Shown piece after piece: positions 5,102 through 63,921 of a stretch of DNA of 64,000 nt; position 1 is the stretch's first letter; the number at the start of each line of letters is the position of its first letter. The notes under the pieces were generated by a model, which saw only the letters and a program-made list of their open reading frames with translations, made no database searches and had not been told where the DNA came from. A program made the position numbers and the translations under genes. Source of the stretch: an uncultured Thermoanaerobaculia bacterium (GTDB taxonomy: Bacteria > Acidobacteriota > Thermoanaerobaculia > Multivoradales > Multivoraceae); NCBI GenBank assembly GCA_951812325.1, contig OX638294.1, positions 3,198,859-3,262,858 on the forward strand. Direction: 5' to 3'.

Positions 5102-5314
5102 GGGTCGTATGGCCAACAATCTATCAGTCGTGCTGGATACTCGATCATGCCGCTCTGGCCGGCGGCGCCGTTGGTCGGTTGCAGTAGAGATCACCGCTGG
5201 CCCGGCGCCGGTTCTCTGGGTGCGCGGTCCGTTGCGCGCGCCTTTGGCCCCCGATCCGAGCGCAGCGGCGAAGCGGCGAGCGCGAGTCGCGTTGCCCCGC
5301 GCTACGATTCCCCA

Positions 5315-6964
5315 ATGATCAAACGAGCTCTCGCCCTCGCGTTTCCTCTTCTCGCGTTTCTCCTCGGCGCCTGCAGCACACCCGCTCCGCCGCCCGATAC
5401 CGCAACCCAACTCGACACCTGGATCGCCGACCTGGCCGACGACGCGATGGAAGGCCGCGGCCCCGGCACGGCCGGCGACGTGATGGCGCGCCAGTACATC
5501 GCCGACGTGATGGCCGGCATGGGCCTCGAACCCGCGGCCGCCGACGGTAGCTGGGAGCAGCCCTTCGACATCGTCGGCATCGACGCGGCGGTGCCCGAGA
5601 CCTGGACGTTCCACTCCAGCGCCGGCGACAGCGTGGAGTTTGCGTTTTGGGACGAGTTCATCGCGCACAGCGGCGTCCAGTCGGAGCAGGCCGCGATCGA
5701 GAACGCCGAACTCGTGTTCGTCGGCTACGGCATCCAGGCGCCCGAGTACGGCTGGGACGACTACGGCGACGCGGACCTCGCCGGCAAGGTGCTCGTCATG
5801 CTGAACAACGATCCGGACTGGGATCCGGACCTGTTCGAGGGCGACCGCCGCCTCTACTACGGCCGCTGGACGTACAAGTACGAGAGCGCCGCGGCTCAGG
5901 GCGCCGTCGGTGCGATCATCATCCACACGACCCCTTCGGCGGGCTACCCGTTCCAGGTCGTACAGACCTCCTGGACCGGCCCGCAGTTCGAGCTTCCCGC
6001 GGAAGGCGAGGCCCGCACCCGGATCAACGCCTGGCTGACGGAGGAGGCCTCCCGACGGCTCTTCGCGCTGGCCGGCGTCGACTACGACGCGACCCTGGAA
6101 TCGGCCCGGAGCGCCGACTTCGTGCCGGTGCCGCTCGGCCTGTCGACCAGCCTTTCGCTGACGAACACGGTAACCAGCGAGCAGACCGCCAACGTGCTCG
6201 GCGCCCTGCCCGGCAGCGACCCGGAACTGGCCGACGAGTGGGTCGTCTTCACCGCCCACCACGACCACATGGGCATCTCGCCGGACGAGAGCCTGGAGGA
6301 CCGGATCTACAACGGCGCCCTGGACAACGCGGCCGGCGTTGCCCAGGTGCTCGCGGTCGCCGGCGAGCTGGCCGCGCAAGAGCCCGGTCCGAGCAGGTCC
6401 ATCCTGTTCGCCTTCGTCGGCGCCGAGGAGCAGGGACTGCTCGGCTCCGAGTACTACGCCGCTCATCCCACCGTGCCGCCCGGCAAGATGGCCGCGAACA
6501 TCAACTACGACGGCGGCAACCAGTGGGGCCGCACCCGCGACGTGACCTACATCGGCTACGGCAAATCGAGCCTCGACGGTGTCGTCGAAGCGGCCGCGGC
6601 CGAACAGGGCCGCACCGTGCTGCCCGACCAGTTCCCGGCCAACGGCTACTTCTACCGCTCGGACCAGTTGAACTTCGCCCGCATCGGCGTGCCGGCGATT
6701 TACCTGGACAACGGCACCGACTTCATCGACCGCCCCGAAGGCTGGGGCCACGAGCAGCTCAAGGCCTGGACCGAGAACATCTACCACCAGGTCTCCGACG
6801 AGTACGGCGAGGACTGGAACCTCGAAGGCATGGTCGACGACGTCGAACTCGGCCTCGCCTGCGCCCGCGCCATTTCCGAGAACCCCGAACTCCCGTCCTG
6901 GAACCCCGGCGACGAGTTCGAGGCGGCACGGTTGGCGGCGCTGGCCGCCGTGTCGGGCGAGTAG
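5315..6964 (+). CDS. M28-family zinc aminopeptidase lipoprotein with PA domain
   Basis: Starts at internal MIKRALALAFPLLAFLLGACS (lipobox). Has HHDHMG, NGALDNAAGVAQVL and FVGAEEQGLLGSEYY metal-ligand motifs. The 5' part of the track ORF is antisense to xerD and rejected. Confidence 0.8.
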   Translation: MIKRALALAFPLLAFLLGACSTPAPPPDTATQLDTWIADLADDAMEGRGPGTAGDVMARQYIADVMAGMGLEPAAADGSWEQPFDIVGIDAAVPETWTFHSSAGDSVEFAFWDEFIAHSGVQSEQAAIENAELVFVGYGIQAPEYGWDDYGDADLAGKVLVMLNNDPDWDPDLFEGDRRLYYGRWTYKYESAAAQGAVGAIIIHTTPSAGYPFQVVQTSWTGPQFELPAEGEARTRINAWLTEEASRRLFALAGVDYDATLESARSADFVPVPLGLSTSLSLTNTVTSEQTANVLGALPGSDPELADEWVVFTAHHDHMGISPDESLEDRIYNGALDNAAGVAQVLAVAGELAAQEPGPSRSILFAFVGAEEQGLLGSEYYAAHPTVPPGKMAANINYDGGNQWGRTRDVTYIGYGKSSLDGVVEAAAAEQGRTVLPDQFPANGYFYRSDQLNFARIGVPAIYLDNGTDFIDRPEGWGHEQLKAWTENIYHQVSDEYGEDWNLEGMVDDVELGLACARAISENPELPSWNPGDEFEAARLAALAAVSGE

Positions 6965-9576: not shown

Positions 9577-12544
9577 CGGTGTCGCCCTTCCGGTCCTTGA
9601 TCGGCGCGATAGCGAACGTCGTGCTCCACTTCGATCCGCGCTCCTCGAGCGCCAGGCCGTAACCAATCTCACGCAGCGTCGCGCGTGCGATGTGCAGCCC
9701 CATGCCGCGGCCCTCCGGCTTTCTGGTGAACCCGATATCGAAGACTTCGTCCCGGTCCCGGGCGTGAATGCCGGGTCCCGTGTCCGAGACGCGGAACGTC
9801 TTCCCGGACCTGTCGAGCTGGATTCGGCGCTCAAGCCGCTCGTTCAAACCCGAGAGCCAGTAGATCGCGTTGTCCACGAGATTGATGAACACAGGATAGA
9901 AGGAAGACGGATAGCCGCGCACGGCCGCGCTGGCGAAGGCGTCGGTCCGGGTCAACTCAACGTGGTGTCTGGCCAGTCGCTGGCCAAAGAGGTTGATCAG
10001 AAAATCGTGAATCTCCCACCCGCGAATGTCCACGGCTTTGCGGTAAAGTCTTCTTTGGAGCGGCGTAAATAGTGTCAGGTACGCGTCGAGATGATCGAAG
10101 CTGCCGCGAATCCCCTGATACAGCGACTTCAGTTCGCGATTCGCATCGGCCCAGGCCTTGAGGCCGCGCAGTCCCGATCGGACCGAACGGATGGCGGCGC
10201 CGAACTCGTGGCTGATGATCTCGATCGCCATGCCTAGCTGAGCGAGCTGAAGGTCGGCGGCAGCCTGTTCCTGGAGTGTGACGTTGCTCTGTTCCACGGC
10301 CTCAAGTTGATCGAGAAGCCAGGAGTCGGCCGTCAAATCGACGGCTTCCAGCTGCGAGCGAACGGCGTCGAGAGTTTTCTTTTCGGTCTCGAGCGCCTCG
10401 CGGATCGGAACTTCCAGATCGGAACGTACGGAAATCAGCTGCTGGTCGTCCAAGTCTGCAAGGTCGCGCCGGTCGAAATCGGCCATTCCGGCGCGAATGG
10501 CATCCTCGACATTCTGCACGCACCGCAGGGCCAGGCTGCGCACATCCTCCGAGATACTCTTCGCTCTCGCGTCTACTTCGCAACGACCCGCCTCCGTTTC
10601 TCTCCTGGCCGATTGACCCAGTTGGTTGAGAGCCGAGTCGATGCGTTCTCGGGCACTAACGTCGACGCCCGCCTTGGTCACTTCCTGCGTGACGACACTC
10701 TCAATGGACGTCCGGAGGTCTCGTATGCCGTCGGCAAGGTTCTGAAACGCTTCCCGGTAGTCGCCCCATTCCCGTTGCAAGGCGCGGCTCAAGCCGATAC
10801 GCGGCTTGGAAACCCGGTAACAGGTCTCCAGCTTCTCGAGATCTCTGCGGGCATTCCGTTCGATCTCTATGATTCGTCTGGCTGCTCGCCCGCGGTCCGT
10901 ATCGAGACTCGCCTCTTTCACTCGTTCCTCGGCCCCCAAGCCCAGTTCCATGGCGCTGTCAAGCGGCTTACTCGTCTCCATTCGCTGGAAGAAGGCCGCA
11001 AGGTCCTTCCTGAACTGGTCGCGCTTGGCGGTGACGGTTCTGGCGCGGGCACGCCTATGGCGCTCGATCTCGTCCAACTCGCGCTTGCGGCTCTTGAACC
11101 GTTCGCCGTACGCTCCCTCCTCCCGGAAGAAGTCGGCGGCCACCTGAACGAGGAAGCTCTTCAGAATGCTCCGCAGTTCACGGTAGGCCTTGTTCTGGCG
11201 GAAGCCCTCTCGCCCCGCCTTCTCGCGAAGACGTGAGTTGTTAACGGAGTCGACTTCAACCACGCCGAACATCTGTCGGTATGAGAAGTAGTAGTAGGAG
11301 GCGCTCTTGGTCCGCCGGAATTCGATTTTCAGCCAGTCGTAGTCGGTGGTCCCGTACGGTTGAATGCGCACGCCGTCCCGATAGATGTAGAGGCCCCCGA
11401 TGCGTCTCGTCTTCTCGAGCATTCGAGCATGCTCCGCCGGAGGAAGAGTGGAATGCCTGGATGCGCCCTCGATTGCGGCGAACCTGATATGGAACGGACC
11501 GCAGGCCGTGGGACGCCCTCTTCCGTCGCGCCAATTGATGACGTGGTCGCTCCTGGTCTCGCCGTAGATGGACACGCTGCCCTTGAACTGGCCATAAGCG
11601 TCGAATCTACCTGAGATCTGATGATCCGCGTTCTCGTAGTCGGAGCGAGTGAAGAACTCGTGCTCGCCGATGAGGTCCTCGCAGGCGCCATCCAGTCTGT
11701 GGTCGCGGAAAGCGGTGCGGATGATGGGCTCCGTGCCAGTCGCGAACGACGGAATGGTAAACCCCAGCAGTGCTTTCTGTAGCGGCGCCGCCGAACGGGA
11801 GGTCGCCTCCCCCGCCATGTCGTGGTCCAGGTCGGCCGATGCTGGCAGAAGGTAGAAGTGCGTACCGTGACCGCCGTCGAGGAGCGACGGCTGGCCCAGG
11901 TGTGCGGCGGTCGCCCGAGGATCAACGGCAAACGCTCCAAGGTCGCCCTTGATCCGGGCCCACTCCTCTTCGTCCATGCGTTTCTGAAGGCCTGCGTTCC
12001 TGTCGAGGAATGACTCCACCATCTCGGCTACGTCCTCGGCGTCGGGCAGGCTGCCTCCGGGAAGAGTGCGTAGCGGAATCCGGATGTCCTGGAGATTCAG
12101 TTCGGGACATTCGAAGACCCGCCAGTTGAGAAAGGCAGCCGTCAGGTCGGACAAGCCGTCGTCGCGAAGGGCGCGTGTGAGCACCAGGACTTGAGGAGCG
12201 ATCGTGGCGATGGCCAGGCGACCGATTCCCTTCTCCCCCAGAATGGGCCTTGCGCCTTGCAGCGGCTGGCGGCGTTGCCGCTCCGTGCGTTTCCGCCGAA
12301 TGCTGGTCTCCGTCGCGATGGTGAGCCATCGGTCGATGAACTCGTCGGTCTGCATGCCGAAGCCGTCGTCGCGCATCACGAACAGCCTGTCGCGGCGGTA
12401 GTAGTCAACTTCCACATGCCTGGCGTCCGCGTCGTGAGCGTTCTTGAACAGTTCGCTAATCGCGGTTGGGATGCCGGCGATCTGCTGTCTCCCCAGCATG
12501 TCCAGCGTTCTCGCCCGGGCCTTGAAGCTAACCTCCGTCGACAT
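9563..12544 (-). CDS. Dual GHKL protein: N-terminal MORC/Hsp90-like ATPase, long coiled-coil middle, C-terminal histidine kinase (HisKA H-box + HATPase_c)
   Basis: Start moved to Met50 (MSTEV...), whose ATG shares one nt with the MTase stop (TGATG). N-terminal ISELFKNAHDADA, RDDGFGM, GEKGIGRLA resemble HATPase_c_3. C-terminal H-box IEIISHEFGAAIRS, N-box FINLVDNAIYW, G1 RVSDTGPGI, G2 GRGMGLHIA. Confidence 0.75.
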   Translation of the reverse strand: MSTEVSFKARARTLDMLGRQQIAGIPTAISELFKNAHDADARHVEVDYYRRDRLFVMRDDGFGMQTDEFIDRWLTIATETSIRRKRTERQRRQPLQGARPILGEKGIGRLAIATIAPQVLVLTRALRDDGLSDLTAAFLNWRVFECPELNLQDIRIPLRTLPGGSLPDAEDVAEMVESFLDRNAGLQKRMDEEEWARIKGDLGAFAVDPRATAAHLGQPSLLDGGHGTHFYLLPASADLDHDMAGEATSRSAAPLQKALLGFTIPSFATGTEPIIRTAFRDHRLDGACEDLIGEHEFFTRSDYENADHQISGRFDAYGQFKGSVSIYGETRSDHVINWRDGRGRPTACGPFHIRFAAIEGASRHSTLPPAEHARMLEKTRRIGGLYIYRDGVRIQPYGTTDYDWLKIEFRRTKSASYYYFSYRQMFGVVEVDSVNNSRLREKAGREGFRQNKAYRELRSILKSFLVQVAADFFREEGAYGERFKSRKRELDEIERHRRARARTVTAKRDQFRKDLAAFFQRMETSKPLDSAMELGLGAEERVKEASLDTDRGRAARRIIEIERNARRDLEKLETCYRVSKPRIGLSRALQREWGDYREAFQNLADGIRDLRTSIESVVTQEVTKAGVDVSARERIDSALNQLGQSARRETEAGRCEVDARAKSISEDVRSLALRCVQNVEDAIRAGMADFDRRDLADLDDQQLISVRSDLEVPIREALETEKKTLDAVRSQLEAVDLTADSWLLDQLEAVEQSNVTLQEQAAADLQLAQLGMAIEIISHEFGAAIRSVRSGLRGLKAWADANRELKSLYQGIRGSFDHLDAYLTLFTPLQRRLYRKAVDIRGWEIHDFLINLFGQRLARHHVELTRTDAFASAAVRGYPSSFYPVFINLVDNAIYWLSGLNERLERRIQLDRSGKTFRVSDTGPGIHARDRDEVFDIGFTRKPEGRGMGLHIARATLREIGYGLALEERGSKWSTTFAIAPIKDRKGDTDDQP

Positions 12545-53160: not shown

Positions 53161-53547
53161 TTACCACGCGATCCGCACCGGATACCGGGAAACCAGCCTG
53201 TCCGGTGTGACCAGCGTCATCCCGTGCTCGATTGCCTGGCAGATCAGGAGGCGGTCGAACGGATCGCCGTGCACGGGCGGCAGCCGCGGTAGCTGCAGGG
53301 CGCTGGCCTCGTCGACCGGCAGGGAACTGAAGCCGTACCACTCTCGCCGTGTGGGAACGAAGACGTCTGGCTGTGCCGGCAACTCGAGTTTGCCGAGCCC
53401 GTGCTTGACGGCCAACTCCCAGGCCGTGACCGCGCTCACGTAGACGTCGTTCGCGGGGTCCGCGACGAGCTTTCGGACTTCCCCGGAGACTCTGGCGGAG
53501 CCTTGGCTCCACCAAAGGAACACGCAGGTGTCGAGCAGCAGCTTCAC
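53161..53547 (-). CDS. vapC: PIN-domain toxin VapC
   Basis: 128 aa. MKLLLDTCVFLWW... with the PIN acidic residues. 4-nt overlap with the upstream antitoxin. Confidence 0.8.
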   Translation of the reverse strand: MKLLLDTCVFLWWSQGSARVSGEVRKLVADPANDVYVSAVTAWELAVKHGLGKLELPAQPDVFVPTRREWYGFSSLPVDEASALQLPRLPPVHGDPFDRLLICQAIEHGMTLVTPDRLVSRYPVRIAW

Positions 53548-53810
53548 TCTTCGGGAAGTATCGGCCCGTTCTCGAACGCGTCGATGAACTCGTCGGGCAG
53601 GGGGTCGAAGAAGGAGTCGGGGACCTCGAACTTGCCTCGATCCAGTCCGAACGGGCGAGGTTTCTTCCGGGCCGCCGGCACAGGACGAATCTCGGCGACC
53701 GGCTCGTTCCGGCGGCAGAGGAGGATCGTCTCCCCTGACTCCACCCGCGCGATGTAGCGGGAGAGATGCGTCTTGGCCTCGTGCATGTTGAGTCGGATCA
53801 TGATCGACAA
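53544..53810 (-). CDS. Phd/YefM-family antitoxin
   Basis: 88 aa. MIRLNMHEAKTHLSRYIARVESGETILLCRRNEPVAEIRPV is typical of Phd/YefM. The real start may be Met4 (53801). Confidence 0.75.
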   Translation of the reverse strand: MSIMIRLNMHEAKTHLSRYIARVESGETILLCRRNEPVAEIRPVPAARKKPRPFGLDRGKFEVPDSFFDPLPDEFIDAFENGPILPEE

Positions 53811-53907
53811 GTTAGTTCAGTTGTGGACTCGATGTCAACCGCGAAGCGAGGCCTGCAGCGGCTTGGTGCGCAACCGGGAGCCGGCAGCGGCGCGCCGTGC
53901 GCCCGCC

Positions 53908-54171
53908 GGTTACACCAGTTCGCTCAGCCGATGCAGCGCCGCCAGCAGGTCGGGCTGCTCGGTGAGCACGCCGCGTAGCGGGTCGGTCTTGCGCCGGTTA
54001 CACCAGTTCGCTCAGCCGATGCAGCGCCGCCAGCAGGTCGGGCTGCTCCGTGAGCACGCCGCGTAGCGGGTCGGTCTTGCGCCGGTTACACCAGCTCGCT
54101 CAGCCGCCTTAGCGCGGCCAGCAGGTCGGGTTGCTCGGTGAGCACGCCGCGTAGCGGGTCGGTCTTGAGCT
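53908..54171. repeat. 88-bp tandem repeat x3; third copy is the authentic 3' end of ligD, including its stop codon
   Basis: Units begin at 53908, 53996 and 54084 with ggttacaccag(t/c)tcgctcagcc...gtgagcacgccgcgtagcgggtcggtcttg. Each copy carries the TAA (minus strand) and about 28 C-terminal codons. Confidence 0.85.
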
Positions 54172-56833
54172 GCTTGAGCCGTTCGGGCAGCGACCGGATG
54201 GTGTGGTCGCGCAGGTCGAGGCCGGGCTTGACCTCGGACCAGCGCAGCGGCGTCGAGACCGGGGCCGCCGGGAGCGGTCTGACGCTGAAGGGGGCGACGA
54301 GCAGCCGTCCGCGGCCGTTCTGGACGAAGTCGATGTAGACCTTGCCGCCGCGGCGTTCGGGGTTGCGGGTGATCGTGGCGATGTCGGGCAACTGGCGGCA
54401 GATGATCCGGGCGATCAGTTGGCCGAGGCCGCGGGACTGCTCGAAGGTGCAGGCGCCGCCGAGCGGCAGAAGAACGTGCAGACCGCTCGAGCCGCTGGTC
54501 TTGACGAAGCTGGGCAGCTTGATCTTCCGGCACAGGCGGCGGATGGCCAGGGCGATCTCGATCACGTCCCCGAAGGGTGCGTCCTTCGGGTCGAGATCGA
54601 GGATGCACCAGTCGGGCTGGCCGAGCTGGTGCACCCGGCTCGACCAGACGTGGAGGACGATCGCGCCCAGGTTGGCGATGTAGACCAGGCTTTCACGGTC
54701 CCGACAGACGAAGTACTCGACTTCCTTGCCGGTGCGGGGGCTCACCAGCTTCACGGTTTGCAGCCAGTCCGGCGCGAAGTCGGGCGCGTTCTTCTGGAAG
54801 AAGGACTTGCCTTCGATCCCGTCGGGATAGCGGGTCATGACCAGCGGCCGGTCGGTCAGGTAGGGCTGCATCGCGTCGGCAATCCCGGCGTAGAAGTCGA
54901 TCAGGTCACCCTTCGTGTAGCCCTCGGCCGGCCAGAACACCTTGGACCTGTTCGTCACGTCGACGCGCCGTTCGGGCGGCGGCGGCGGGGCGGCGCCGGG
55001 GGCCCGCGGCCCGGCGCGGCGTACGCAGTCCTCGACCGGCTTGTCGTCGCGCAAGCGGAGGAAGACAGGGTGCCGGAGCACGCCGTGGGGGGTCCATTCC
55101 TTGTAGCGGACCTCGCAGATCAGCTCCGAACGGGGCTCGATCCAGGTCTGCTCTTCGACCCGGCCGCCGATCAGGTCGTTGTCGGCCAGCGGCCTGTCGA
55201 CGGGATCGTCGGCGTCTGCGCCGTTGCCCGCGCGGCCGCCGGCGTCTGCGCCGTTGCCCGCGCGGCCGCCGCCGTCGGCGCCGACGGGGGCCCGGCATGG
55301 CGGACGGTCGCGCTGGTTGGCCGACAGTCGATCCGCCAGCTCCGCGAGGATCGCGTCGCTGAACCCGGCGCCGACGCGTCCGGCATAGACGAGGCCGCCG
55401 GCTTTGCCTTCGCCGGCTTTGCCTCCGCCGGCTTTGCCTCCGCTGGCTTCGGCGCCGCTGGCGCCGGCTTTGCCTCCGCTGGCGGCCGCCGTGCCGCTGG
55501 CCTCCGCATCCCAGACCGCCAGGTGGAGCGAGCCGAAACCGACCCGGCTGCCCTTGGGCGGCGACATGCCGACGATGGCGAAGTCGGCGGTCCGTTCGGT
55601 GCGCAGCTTGACCCACGACGACGACCGGCGGCCAACGTAGCGGGAGTCGCCGTCCTTGGCCATCGCGCCTTCAAGGCCCATCGCCGCCACCTGCTCGAAG
55701 AACGCCTCGCCCTGCTCCTCGATGTGGTCCGAGTAGCGGAGCGGCCCGGCCGGGGGCAGAACCTTCGCCAGCAGGGCCTTTCGCTCCAGCAGGGCCAGCG
55801 ACCGCAGGTCCGATCCCTCGAAGGCGACGAGATCGAAGGCGAACAAGGTCGCGGGCCGGCGCACGGCGGCCTGTTCGATGTCGACCGGTCGGCTGAGCAG
55901 GGCGCGCGTCTGCAGCCTGGCGAAGCTGGGCCTGCCGCCGGCGTCGAGGACGGTGACCTCGCCGTCCAGGACCAGGGACTGCACCGGCAGGGCGCGCAGG
56001 GCGCGGACCAGTTCGGGGTAGAGCGCGGTCACGTTGCCGCCGTTCCGGTAGCGCAGGAAGACGTTGCCGCCTTCCCTGGCCGCCACCAGCCGGTAGCCGT
56101 CGTACTTCAGTTCGTAGATCCAGCCCGGCCGGGAGAACGGCCGGTCACCGGCGACCGCGAGCATCAGTTGCAGCGAGCGCGGGTCGACGTCTTGCCGTCG
56201 CGCGCCGGATTCGGCGACCTCGGCACGCACCTCCTCGATCCGCTCGCAGCCGTCCCGGAGTTCCTCGACGGTCAGGCCCGAGAGCACGGACTCCGGCGGC
56301 AGGTCGTCCGCGCCGCCCTCGCTCTCCGGGCGGGCAGCCGCGTCGGGTTTCTTCATCAGCAGCCACTGGTTGCCGCCGTCCGTCTGGCGCCGGCCGCCCG
56401 TGCGAAACAGGGTCCAGACGCCGCGCAGCTTGTAGCCGTGGAGTTCGAAGAGGAGCTTGCCGTTCTCCAACCCGGCGACCGGGTCCTCAAGCGGCCTCCA
56501 GCGGCCGCTGTCCCAGACGATCATCGCCCCGGCGCCGTAGTTGCCGGCGGGGATCGATCCCTCGAAATCGGCGTACTCCAGCGGGTGGTCCTCGGTGGCC
56601 ACCGCCAGGCGTTTGACCTCGGGGTCGAGGCTGGGACCGCGGGGCACGGCCCACGACTTGAGAGTGCCTTCGAGTTCCAGGCGCAGGTCGTAGTGAACGC
56701 GGCGTGCCGCGTGCTTCTGGACGACGAAGCGGCCGGCGCCCGTTCCCGTCGCGGGACCGAAGGGTTCGGGCGTCGCTTCGCTCGATCGCTTGCGGCGGTA
56801 GGCCTCGAGATTGCCGCTCGGCATCCGCGGCAT
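54086..56833 (-). CDS. ligD: Multifunctional NHEJ ligase LigD (phosphoesterase - ATP-dependent ligase - polymerase domains)
   Basis: 915 aa. N-terminal PE domain (VQKHAARRVHYDLRLE), ligase KxDG motif ELKYDGYRLVA, C-terminal Pol domain (SGSSGLHVLLPL). The low-complexity (GKAG)n / (GGRAGNGADA)2 linker is encoded by DNA repeats. Confidence 0.9.
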   Translation of the reverse strand: MPRMPSGNLEAYRRKRSSEATPEPFGPATGTGAGRFVVQKHAARRVHYDLRLELEGTLKSWAVPRGPSLDPEVKRLAVATEDHPLEYADFEGSIPAGNYGAGAMIVWDSGRWRPLEDPVAGLENGKLLFELHGYKLRGVWTLFRTGGRRQTDGGNQWLLMKKPDAAARPESEGGADDLPPESVLSGLTVEELRDGCERIEEVRAEVAESGARRQDVDPRSLQLMLAVAGDRPFSRPGWIYELKYDGYRLVAAREGGNVFLRYRNGGNVTALYPELVRALRALPVQSLVLDGEVTVLDAGGRPSFARLQTRALLSRPVDIEQAAVRRPATLFAFDLVAFEGSDLRSLALLERKALLAKVLPPAGPLRYSDHIEEQGEAFFEQVAAMGLEGAMAKDGDSRYVGRRSSSWVKLRTERTADFAIVGMSPPKGSRVGFGSLHLAVWDAEASGTAAASGGKAGASGAEASGGKAGGGKAGEGKAGGLVYAGRVGAGFSDAILAELADRLSANQRDRPPCRAPVGADGGGRAGNGADAGGRAGNGADADDPVDRPLADNDLIGGRVEEQTWIEPRSELICEVRYKEWTPHGVLRHPVFLRLRDDKPVEDCVRRAGPRAPGAAPPPPPERRVDVTNRSKVFWPAEGYTKGDLIDFYAGIADAMQPYLTDRPLVMTRYPDGIEGKSFFQKNAPDFAPDWLQTVKLVSPRTGKEVEYFVCRDRESLVYIANLGAIVLHVWSSRVHQLGQPDWCILDLDPKDAPFGDVIEIALAIRRLCRKIKLPSFVKTSGSSGLHVLLPLGGACTFEQSRGLGQLIARIICRQLPDIATITRNPERRGGKVYIDFVQNGRGRLLVAPFSVRPLPAAPVSTPLRWSEVKPGLDLRDHTIRSLPERLKQLKTDPLRGVLTEQPDLLAALRRLSELV
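55211..55270. repeat. Perfect 30-bp tandem duplication inside ligD encoding (GGRAGNGADA)x2
   Basis: ggcgtctgcgccgttgcccgcgcggccgcc twice. An adjacent GCCGGCTTTGCC(T/C)CCGC repeats encode the (GKAG)n linker. Confidence 0.8.
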
Positions 56834-58842: not shown

Positions 58843-61850
<3,008 letters not shown>

Positions 61851-61852
<2 letters not shown>

Positions 61853-62100
61853 CAGCGGTACGATGACCGCCATGCCAGCGCCCGCCCGGCGACCGCCCGG
61901 CGCCCGTCTCGACCGACCACGACACGTCGGGCGACAGCGGTACGATGACCAGCCATGCCAGCGCCCCGGCGACCGTCTCGACCGACTGCGACACGTCGGG
62001 TGACAGCGGTACGATGACCGCCATGCCAGTGCCCGCCCGGAGACCGTCTCGACCGACTGCGGCACGTCGGGTGACAGCGGTACGATGACCCGCCATGCCA
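61851..62100. repeat. Tandem repeat (units 82, 69, 71 bp, plus a partial fourth) immediately upstream of and running into the MT-A70 MTase start
   Basis: Units begin at 61851, 61933, 62002 and 62073 with gacagcggtacgatgacc(n)ccatgccag(c/t)gc... Each copy reproduces the ATGCCAGCGC start context of the MTase gene. The first copy starts at the M1 peptidase stop codon. Confidence 0.85.
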
Positions 62101-62733
62101 GCGCACGAGCACTTGGCGGCGGCCGACTTCGAGCGGACGTACGCGGGTAGCGTCTTCGGCACCGTCCTGGCGGATCCGCCGTGGCAGTTCCTGAACCGCA
62201 CCGGCAAGGTGGCGCCCGAGCACCGCCGCCTGAGCCGCTACGCGACCCTTTCGCAGACCGAGATTGAAGCAATCCCGGTCGCCGCGGCCTGCGCCGAGGC
62301 CGCCCACCTCTACCTCTGGGTACCCAATGCCCTCGTCCAGGAGGGCCTGGACGTGATGAAGCGCTGGGGTTTCACCTACAAGACGAACCTGGTCTGGCAC
62401 AAGGTGCGCAAGGACGGCGGCCCCGACGGTCGGGGAGTCGGCTTCTACTTCCGCAACACGACCGAACTCGTCCTGTTCGGCGTCCGCGGAAAGCTCCGCA
62501 CGCTGGCGCCGGGCCGGCGGCAGGTGAACATCATCCGCTCGCGCAAGCGGGAACACTCGCGCAAACCGGACGAACTGTACGAGATCATCGAAGCGTGCAG
62601 CCCCGGCCCCTACCTGGAGTTGTTCGCCCGCGGCCGCCACTCCGAACTCTGGACCGCCTGGGGCGACCAGAGCGACGGCTACGAGCCGGATTGGCCCACC
62701 TACGCGAACGCCAGCGGCGGCGTGGACCGCTAA
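62095..62733 (+). CDS. MT-A70-family N6-adenine methyltransferase
   Basis: 212 aa with the catalytic DPPW motif (VLADPPWQF) and conserved WVPN, FYFRNTTELVLFGVRGK. Confidence 0.8.
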   Translation: MPAHEHLAAADFERTYAGSVFGTVLADPPWQFLNRTGKVAPEHRRLSRYATLSQTEIEAIPVAAACAEAAHLYLWVPNALVQEGLDVMKRWGFTYKTNLVWHKVRKDGGPDGRGVGFYFRNTTELVLFGVRGKLRTLAPGRRQVNIIRSRKREHSRKPDELYEIIEACSPGPYLELFARGRHSELWTAWGDQSDGYEPDWPTYANASGGVDR

Positions 62734-62939
62734 CGGGCGGTGGTCTGGCTCGGCGCCCGCCGCCCGGCTCGAAGGCGCCGCCCCGCCGGCGTGTACCGCT
62801 AACGGGCGGTGGTCTGGCTCGGCGCCCGCAGCCCGGCTTTGAAGGCGCCGCCCCGCCGGCGTGTACCGCTAACGGGCGGTGGTCTGGCTCGGCGCCCGCC
62901 GCCCGGCTTGAAGGCGCCGTCCCGCCGGCGTCAGGCGAT
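62731..62939. repeat. About 70-bp tandem repeat x3 spanning the convergent 3' ends of the MT-A70 MTase (+) and fic (-)
   Basis: Units begin at 62731, 62800 and 62870 with taacgggcggtggtctggctcggcgcccgc(c/a)gcccggct...gtgtaccgc. Copy 1 supplies the MTase TAA; copy 3 supplies the fic stop (cta) and last 15 codons. Confidence 0.85.
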
Positions 62940-63921
62940 AGCGCTGGTCCTTCGCCCTCGGCGCCTCCGGTCGCGTCATCTCGATCAGGCCTGCTTGCAG
63001 GGCGGGTCCAAGGTATCCCTGACGCAGCCATTTTCGGTCGCGCAGGCCCAGTGCATCGAGCATCTCGCGCCTGGACATCTCTCCGTTCACTAGCTCCAGG
63101 AGCCGCTCTACTTGGGGGGGCACTTGCGGGGTTTCATGGGGGGTTACTTGGGGGGTTTCATGGGGGGTAGCCTGTCGCACCGCAGCGAGGATTGCGTCCA
63201 GCATGAAACGGATGAACGGTGTGCTCCCGCCTTGCCTGGAACTCTCTTCGATGGCCGTGTAGTACTCGGGCTGGCAAGCCTGCACGACGCTCTCCACCGG
63301 CACGTGGGCGAACATCGGCTTCCAGCGGCTGAGGATCAGGGTCTGCCACAGCCGGCCGAGGCGGCCGTTGCCGTCCTCGAAGGGATGAATGAACTCGAAC
63401 TCGTAGTGAAACACGGAGCTCGCGATCAGCGGGTGCTCCTCGGCGCCCCGCAGCCGGCTCAGGAGGTCCGCCATCAGCCCCGGCACGCGGTCTGCCGGCG
63501 GACCGATGTGGTGTACGCCGTCAGGGCCGATCACGCCCACGGCGGTGGTGCGGTATCGACCGGGTGTTGCGGCCAGTCCGGTCATCAGCGCTCGGTGAGC
63601 CCCGAGCAGGTCGTCCTCGCTCGCCGGCGTCCAATCCCCGGCCAGGTCGTAGGCCGCGTTCGCGTTGCGCACCTCCTGCACGTCCTTCGGCGGCCCTGCG
63701 ACCCGCTTGCCGTCAAGAATCGCCGACACCTGCTCCTCGGACAGCACGTTGCCCTCGATGGCCACGGAACCGTGAACCGTACGAACGCGGGCTTCCCGCC
63801 GCAGTTGCAGGTCCAGCCCCAGGCCGGCTGCTTCGGCCCGCCCGATCGCCTCACCGATCTGCTCCACCAGGAACAGGATCCCGGGCGTGATCGTGTAGGG
63901 CGGCGCCGCGGCAGCGGTCAT
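62869..63921 (-). CDS. Fic-family protein (AMPylation/phosphocholination-type fold)
   Basis: 350 aa. Canonical Fic motif HPFEDGNGRLGR. Contains a small TPHETPQV x2 internal repeat. Confidence 0.85.
   Translation of the reverse strand: MTAAAAPPYTITPGILFLVEQIGEAIGRAEAAGLGLDLQLRREARVRTVHGSVAIEGNVLSEEQVSAILDGKRVAGPPKDVQEVRNANAAYDLAGDWTPASEDDLLGAHRALMTGLAATPGRYRTTAVGVIGPDGVHHIGPPADRVPGLMADLLSRLRGAEEHPLIASSVFHYEFEFIHPFEDGNGRLGRLWQTLILSRWKPMFAHVPVESVVQACQPEYYTAIEESSRQGGSTPFIRFMLDAILAAVRQATPHETPQVTPHETPQVPPQVERLLELVNGEMSRREMLDALGLRDRKWLRQGYLGPALQAGLIEMTRPEAPRAKDQRYRLTPAGRRLQAGRRAPSQTTAR

Follow-up and report, generated by a model that had tools for sequence, protein, structure and literature searches.

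The convergent stop codons of an MT-A70 family methyltransferase gene and of a Fic-domain gene (fic) lie, in the 64,000-nt stretch of DNA that was analysed (the window), within a tandem array of three units, each of which contains the ends of both genes. With a probability of about 0.82, we consider this array (the 3' array) to be a young, lineage-specific minisatellite (VNTR), near-neutral and derived from locally duplicated gene-end sequence. Its classification as a VNTR is based on the copy number of the unit, which is 1, 2 or 3 among close relatives. The array is probably selectively neutral, and its only demonstrated effect is the separation of two genes that formerly overlapped.

The array was identified by TRF at 62718-62931 (period 69, 3.1 copies, 95% matches, score 391), and a repeat search of the window retrieved three in-register copies with start-to-start spacings of 69 and 70 nt. 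A 35-mer of the unit (ACCGCTAACGGGCGGTGGTCTGGCTCGGCGCCCGC) had 3 exact occurrences in the window, the number expected from 100 dinucleotide-preserving shuffles being 0. The limits of the repeat were set by MAFFT alignment of the three units and their flanks, which gave unit lengths of 69, 70 and 69 nt and showed that the units differ from each other by G/T, C/A and C/T changes and by a 1-nt indel. The tandem triplication at the methyltransferase and fic stops, which had been proposed from the letters of the sequence, was therefore borne out by TRF, by the repeat search and by the threefold presence of the 35-mer. The array indeed lies at the position first given to it (62731-62939), but its true limits are 62718, about 13 nt earlier, and 62931. 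Similarly, the 70-bp unit of the original prediction is right for unit 2, while units 1 and 3 have 69 nt. The coordinates of all features are given in Table 1.

Table 1. Position and content of the genes, arrays and repeat units discussed in the text (window coordinates)
Feature	Position	Strand	Description
88-nt x3 array at the LigD gene end	53904..54167		unit 3 holds the last 26 LigD codons with the real stop, TTA at 54086-54088 (minus strand)
5' array	61842..62104		four core copies, spacing ~69-76 nt; TRF, repeat search
MT-A70 family methyltransferase gene	62095..62733	+	212 aa, DPPW motif; PF05063, 1.3e-27, full-length profile
Left microhomology CGGCGGCGT	62715..62723		partner CGCCGGCGT at 62923-62931
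Repeat unit 1	62718..62786		69 nt; last 4 MT-A70 codons and functional TAA (62731-62733)
Repeat unit 2	62787..62856		70 nt, with a 1-nt insertion; pure spacer
Repeat unit 3 with terminal microhomology	62857..62931		functional fic stop, CTA 62869-62871 (minus strand)
Fic-domain gene	62869..63921	-	350 aa; PF02661 and PF21247; HPFEDGNGR motif
In-frame 24-nt repeat in fic	63113..63168	-	codes for the TPHETPQV linker that joins the Fic domain to the C-terminal one

Both stops are present in every unit, in the form of the tetramer CTAA. A unit comprises the last 4 methyltransferase codons with their stop and the last 20 fic codons with theirs, not the last 15 codons of fic that had been assigned to it. 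The methyltransferase gene uses the TAA of unit 1 and fic the CTA of unit 3, which also accommodates the last 20 fic codons (62872-62931); the two genes do, as foreseen, end in different copies of the repeat. Besides the end of the methyltransferase gene, unit 1 includes the 3' end of fic in silent form, and in unit 2 both stop copies (TAA 62800-62802 and CTA 62799-62801) are silent. The idea that transcripts reading through the copies could specify alternative C-termini is not supported: each gene stops in-frame in the first unit that it enters. The extra units are downstream of both stops, and the protein lengths are constant with 1, 2 or 3 copies. Thus, as both stops are present in every unit, neither protein is altered.

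To place the array among related genomes, the methyltransferase protein was used as a query against species-representative genomes. This put the window among uncultured Acidobacteriota (MAGs of Thermoanaerobaculia or 'Candidatus Multivorans'), and the isolate names of several relatives suggest sponge and coral metagenomes. The 69-nt unit was found once in L003, L081, L082, L085 and L086, twice in L001, L087 and L088, and three times in the window. This 1/2/3 allele series is backed by two independent samples or assemblies only: the 1-copy and 2-copy contigs are all from one metagenome assembly (ERZ18545498), and the window DNA appears to come from another one, in which a 4.63-Mb contig encodes proteins with 100% identity to the methyltransferase and Fic of the window. 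An exact-pattern scan of JGI metagenomes for further alleles returned 0 contigs. The nucleotide identity of the flanks to those of the window was 95-97% for L001 and 96-97% for L085, and the three alleles would, judged on this identity, belong to approximately one species.

In the single-copy allele, the methyltransferase gene occupies positions 9689-10327 and fic positions 10324-11376, which means that they overlap by 4 nt, CTAA. The single-copy orthologue in L085 and L003 is collinear with one unit of the window. More distant relatives have a TTAG overlap in place of CTAA, and their Fic tail is shorter. With 1 unit, the two genes therefore overlap by 4 nt, whereas a spacer of 65 nt separates them with 2 units (L001) and one of 135 nt with 3 units (window).

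The substitutions that distinguish the units provide some information on the order of events. Both CTCGAAGG and GCCGCCCC are common to unit 1 of the window and unit 1 of L001, and unit 3 of the window is identical to unit 2 of L001, indicating that the first duplication is older than the split between the window and L001. Unit 2 of the window is without counterpart in L001; it would either have been gained later or have been lost from L001. The methyltransferase of L001 ends in GVYR, as compared with GVDR in the window, and this tail agrees with GTGTACC, the variant seen at the junction in the downstream units. The replacement is consistent with an exchange between units, and it was the only protein-level effect of the 3' array that we saw.

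A likely starting point for the duplication is offered by the sequences at the edges of the unit. The pair CGGCGGCGT/CGCCGGCGT forms an imperfect 9-nt direct repeat, CGGCG(G/C)CGT, that bounds the unit, and a hybrid of the two recurs at the internal junctions (62784-62792 and 62854-62862). In the single-copy L085, the flanking pair is CGGCGTG / CGGCGTG, 69 nt apart. Slipped-strand mispairing and unequal recombination classically take place at short direct repeats of this kind. We propose that the ancestor had convergent MT-A70 and Fic genes, the stops of which were fused in CTAA with a 4-nt overlap. Slipped-strand mispairing or unequal recombination at CGGCGGCGT/CGCCGGCGT would have duplicated the 69-nt segment across CTAA (4 methyltransferase and 20 fic codons), which would later have expanded to three copies. 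That the array was made by slippage and not by some other route of recombination is our inference. Each gene still ends in the unit closest to its body, the remainder having become spacer. Because the stops are regenerated in each unit, boundary-spanning duplications of this type would escape purifying selection in a compact genome.

An assembly artefact, in which the assembler would have falsely expanded a single-copy junction, appears very unlikely as the source of the 3' array. The occurrence of three arrays of about three copies within 10 kb is suspicious at first sight, but the units are distinguished by substitutions and a 1-nt indel, unlike the identical copies expected of artefactual loops, and in another assembly (ptg000044l / CATOTG010000001.1) a 2-unit array has unit-specific substitutions in common with the window. 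Furthermore, the ptg and atg contig names suggest long-read assemblies, in which 210 nt would be spanned many times by the reads. We attach hardly any probability to another origin, the insertion at the junction of a mobile, dispersed repeat (MIRU, REP or MITE type) bringing its own stop codons. The MIRUs (mycobacterial interspersed repetitive units; Supply et al. 1997, as summarised in PMC3184786 and PMC12548453) are tandem units of 40-100 nt with a variable copy number, the ends of which overlap the flanking stop or start codons, so that the expression of these genes is hardly affected; they form one family dispersed over ~40-50 loci, and their insertion is believed to take place at start codons where the neighbouring genes are co-oriented. 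The 3' array resembles them in its unit size, its tandem order, the high-GC genome in which it is found and the position of the repeat ends at flanking codons, and the likeness is strongest for the 5' array (see below), which includes the upstream gene's stop as well as the methyltransferase start. By contrast, each array in the window duplicates its own local sequence, and the three units are unrelated to each other. The 3' units do contain the stops of the flanking genes, but these genes are convergent and the codons are their own: the unit has as its orthologue the gene ends found once in relatives, and it encodes the real Fic C-terminus together with the last methyltransferase codons. No further copy of the 69-nt unit, linked or unlinked, was found in the rest of the window (64 kb) or in the 80 other loci searched, which led us to reject a MIRU-like dispersed family, and palindromic structure in the unit was not above that of shuffled controls.

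It is also unlikely that the array is a functional element of the 3' region, either a terminator or insulator array that tunes convergent transcription or a set of silent 3' cassettes diversifying the C-termini by gene conversion. Several observations could be read in this way: the single-copy overlap leaves no room for a terminator, and expansion provides a spacer of 65-135 nt; the D to Y change in the methyltransferase tail of the 2-copy relative agrees with the variant of the downstream-unit junction; and variable arrays are present on both sides of the methyltransferase gene. However, a consensus scan of 61700-63100 disclosed neither a sigma-70-like promoter nor an intrinsic terminator (0 terminator-like sites, no hairpin plus T-tract). 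The predicted RNA folding of single units, of the whole array and of the single-copy orthologue was no better than that of shuffled sequences (z from -0.86 to +0.89), and the covariance models of Rfam 15 gave no relevant match at E<=1 in 61500-63300. An intrinsic terminator or a REP-type palindrome was rejected for the 3' array on the basis of the absence of terminator-like sites and of excess folding. As to the cassettes, unit 2 carries a frameshifting indel relative to fic, so that this silent fic end is not usable, and the Fic tail past RYRLTPAGRR is not conserved, most homologues having 330-337 aa and ending in ...RRVRG. Convergent transcription may be modestly affected by the additional spacer, though this is improbable.

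The 3' array resembles the VNTRs or minisatellites used as MLVA loci in that its units, tens of nt long and slightly diverged, are arranged head to tail in 1, 2 or 3 copies; the unit is of local origin with short direct repeats at its ends, which makes slippage or unequal recombination plausible. We found tandem units well above chance, copy variation at one locus and local origin. It differs from the usual VNTR in that it sits on the fused stops of convergent genes and its unit consists of the 3' ends of two genes. Convergent overlaps of 4 nt (CTAA, TTAA, CTAG or TTAG) are a recognised common class (PMC2174442). The single-copy allele of L085 and L086 is exactly such an overlap (CTAA), and the distant relatives have TTAG. 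In the usual account, such overlaps arise by loss of a stop codon, whereas here the overlap is undone by tandem duplication.

A DNA methyltransferase gene with copy-number-variable repeats is reminiscent of phasevarions. In these, repeats of 1-5-nt units lie inside the ORF or the promoter and switch the frame or the promoter spacing. The 3' units, in contrast, have 69 nt and follow the stop, and a phasevarion was rejected for the 3' array because the length of the methyltransferase ORF does not change with the number of units (1, 2 or 3). Tandem duplication followed by decay of the redundant copies is a model for the intergenic spacers of mitochondrial genomes. The likeness is that new intergenic DNA is formed from duplicated adjacent gene ends and that redundant copies gather indels; the scale and the type of genome are different, and gene order is not changed here. 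A CRISPR array was discarded because the 3' units abut without spacers, and a DGR VR/TR pair because the differences between units are not adenine-specific. The literature searched contained no earlier report for the uncultured Thermoanaerobaculia symbiont lineage or 'Candidatus Multivorans'.

The Fic protein consists of a Fic domain and a C-terminal Fic-like_C domain (Pfam). The copy number of the 24-nt repeat that encodes the linker between them differs in L001, where Fic has 342 aa as compared with 350 aa in the window. The gene order peptidase-methyltransferase-fic is common to many relatives of the window. In some close relatives, a DUF2277 gene starts 11 nt after the methyltransferase gene, without fic between them; in the window lineage, a cassette of ~1.5 kb (fic and ~450 nt) separates the methyltransferase and DUF2277 genes. 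From this comparison, which involved L083 (1550-2496), L084 (4001-4845) and L085 (10324-12119), we conclude that fic is an accessory insertion beside the methyltransferase gene. The left edge of the cassette (...AGCGGCGG|) was <=3 nt from the left edge of the 69-nt unit, and this may be a locally recombination-prone site. A database protein of 307 aa (P0042) combines MT-A70 and DUF2277 domains. The 212-aa MT-A70 protein shares 70-80% identity with proteins from MAGs of Planctomycetota, Thermodesulfobacteriota, Proteobacteria and Bacteroidota. This unusual degree of conservation across phyla suggests either strong constraint or frequent horizontal transfer of what would be an orphan methyltransferase.

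The methyltransferase gene is bracketed by tandem arrays, as the original prediction had it, the 5' array being confirmed with its four cores. Its cores are situated between an M1 peptidase gene (60050..61852), which stops at TGA, and the methyltransferase start at 62095. The core, GACAGCGGTACGATGACCGCCATGCCAGCG, is present four times, two copies having 1-nt indels, and comprises the context of the peptidase stop (TGA), a TACGAT box resembling a -10 element and the methyltransferase start, ATGCCAGCG; of these starts, the last one is real (ATG 62095). There are 4 cores in the window, 5 in L001 and 2 diverged ones in L085. A box of the form GCGGTACGAT, GCGCTACGAT or GCGGTACCAT precedes the methyltransferase ATG by 8-10 nt in the window (61857-62097) and in nearly all 'Candidatus Multivorans' relatives. 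By its motif (TAnnnT) and its spacing, this conserved box looks like a putative -10 element placed for a leaderless mRNA. Since every 5' unit has the box and an ATG, the array multiplies the putative promoter and the start. The upstream ATGs open ORFs of 20-43 aa only. A similar box was seen at 5301-5317, before a 549-aa ORF that starts at 5315. Alignment of the ~38-nt filler of the 5' unit (61881-61926 and its equivalents) to the methyltransferase 5' coding region or to the peptidase 3' end did not reach significance (p ~0.11-0.13).

Another array that spans a gene boundary is found at the end of the LigD gene (54086..56833, minus strand). Its units 1 and 2 are silent downstream copies of the gene end, situated between LigD and a PhdYefM/PIN toxin-antitoxin pair (53161..53810). 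The loci retrieved from relatives do not reach this array, L085 beginning within LigD and L087 ending ahead of the LigD 3' end. The LigD and the peptidase/methyltransferase arrays follow the same gene-boundary-spanning logic as the 3' array. The mutual similarity of the 5', 3' and LigD units was no higher than that of shuffled sequence, and with unrelated units no recombination is expected between the arrays bracketing the methyltransferase gene. Within LigD, a low-complexity linker (55210-55495) contains in-frame repeats of 15, 21 and 30 nt, and the length of the protein differs in relatives (915 aa versus 890 aa). The region that follows fic and DUF2277, past the right end of the window, is represented in the closest relative by L087 (444-9500). 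It contains a DUF222-HNH gene with internal repeats (135 nt in L087; 135 and 108 nt in L085), fragments of ISL3 and DDE_Tnp_1 transposases and a C5 DNA methylase, and looks like a variable, mobile-element-rich island beside the locus.

Arrays inside long ORFs had periods divisible by 3 (15, 21, 24 and 30 in the window; 108 and 135 in a DUF222 gene of relatives). In three arrays the spacing is not divisible by 3 (88; 69/71; 69/70), and each of these extends across the end of a gene. This supports the reading that selection acts as a filter, keeping multiples of 3 within genes and allowing other spacings across gene boundaries. The distribution of the arrays along the window is more puzzling, since TRF found seven arrays with a period >=15 nt in the last 10 kb and two in the first 53 kb. 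Purely random slippage leaves this clustering unexplained. We found no sign change of the GC skew that would point to a replication terminus or a skew switch at the repeat cluster, and no change in composition in the repeat-rich last 10 kb of the window.

One may wonder whether the boundary duplications (69-135 nt) in the last 10 kb and in its continuation in the relatives reflect a hotspot, due to a directed or locally enhanced process. We regard this as doubtful. Candidate causes would be replication-transcription conflict at packed gene ends or repair of the Ku/LigD type, the genes for which are in the same stretch, and such a process would give rise to new intergenic sequence and separate overlapping genes. 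If this were true, a leaderless-type promoter and start would be multiplied in the 5' array, and the expression of the orphan MT-A70 enzyme, and with it the methylome, would vary with copy number between strains of the sponge symbiont.

On the minisatellite reading, which we prefer, the 3' array reveals no new molecular mechanism. It is mildly unusual in that the repeat is built on two fused convergent stops and in that a series of 1, 2 and 3 units is found in near-identical genomes; the local cluster of boundary-spanning arrays is also unusual. Its interest lies in providing a clean, dated example of a compact bacterial genome gaining intergenic DNA, a 4-nt convergent overlap having given way to a 65-nt or 135-nt spacer within roughly one species. 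It is also a warning for annotation, as duplicated pseudo-ends of genes may occupy spacers. For the uncultured Thermoanaerobaculia symbiont lineage, the 3' and 5' arrays are ready-made VNTR markers of strains.
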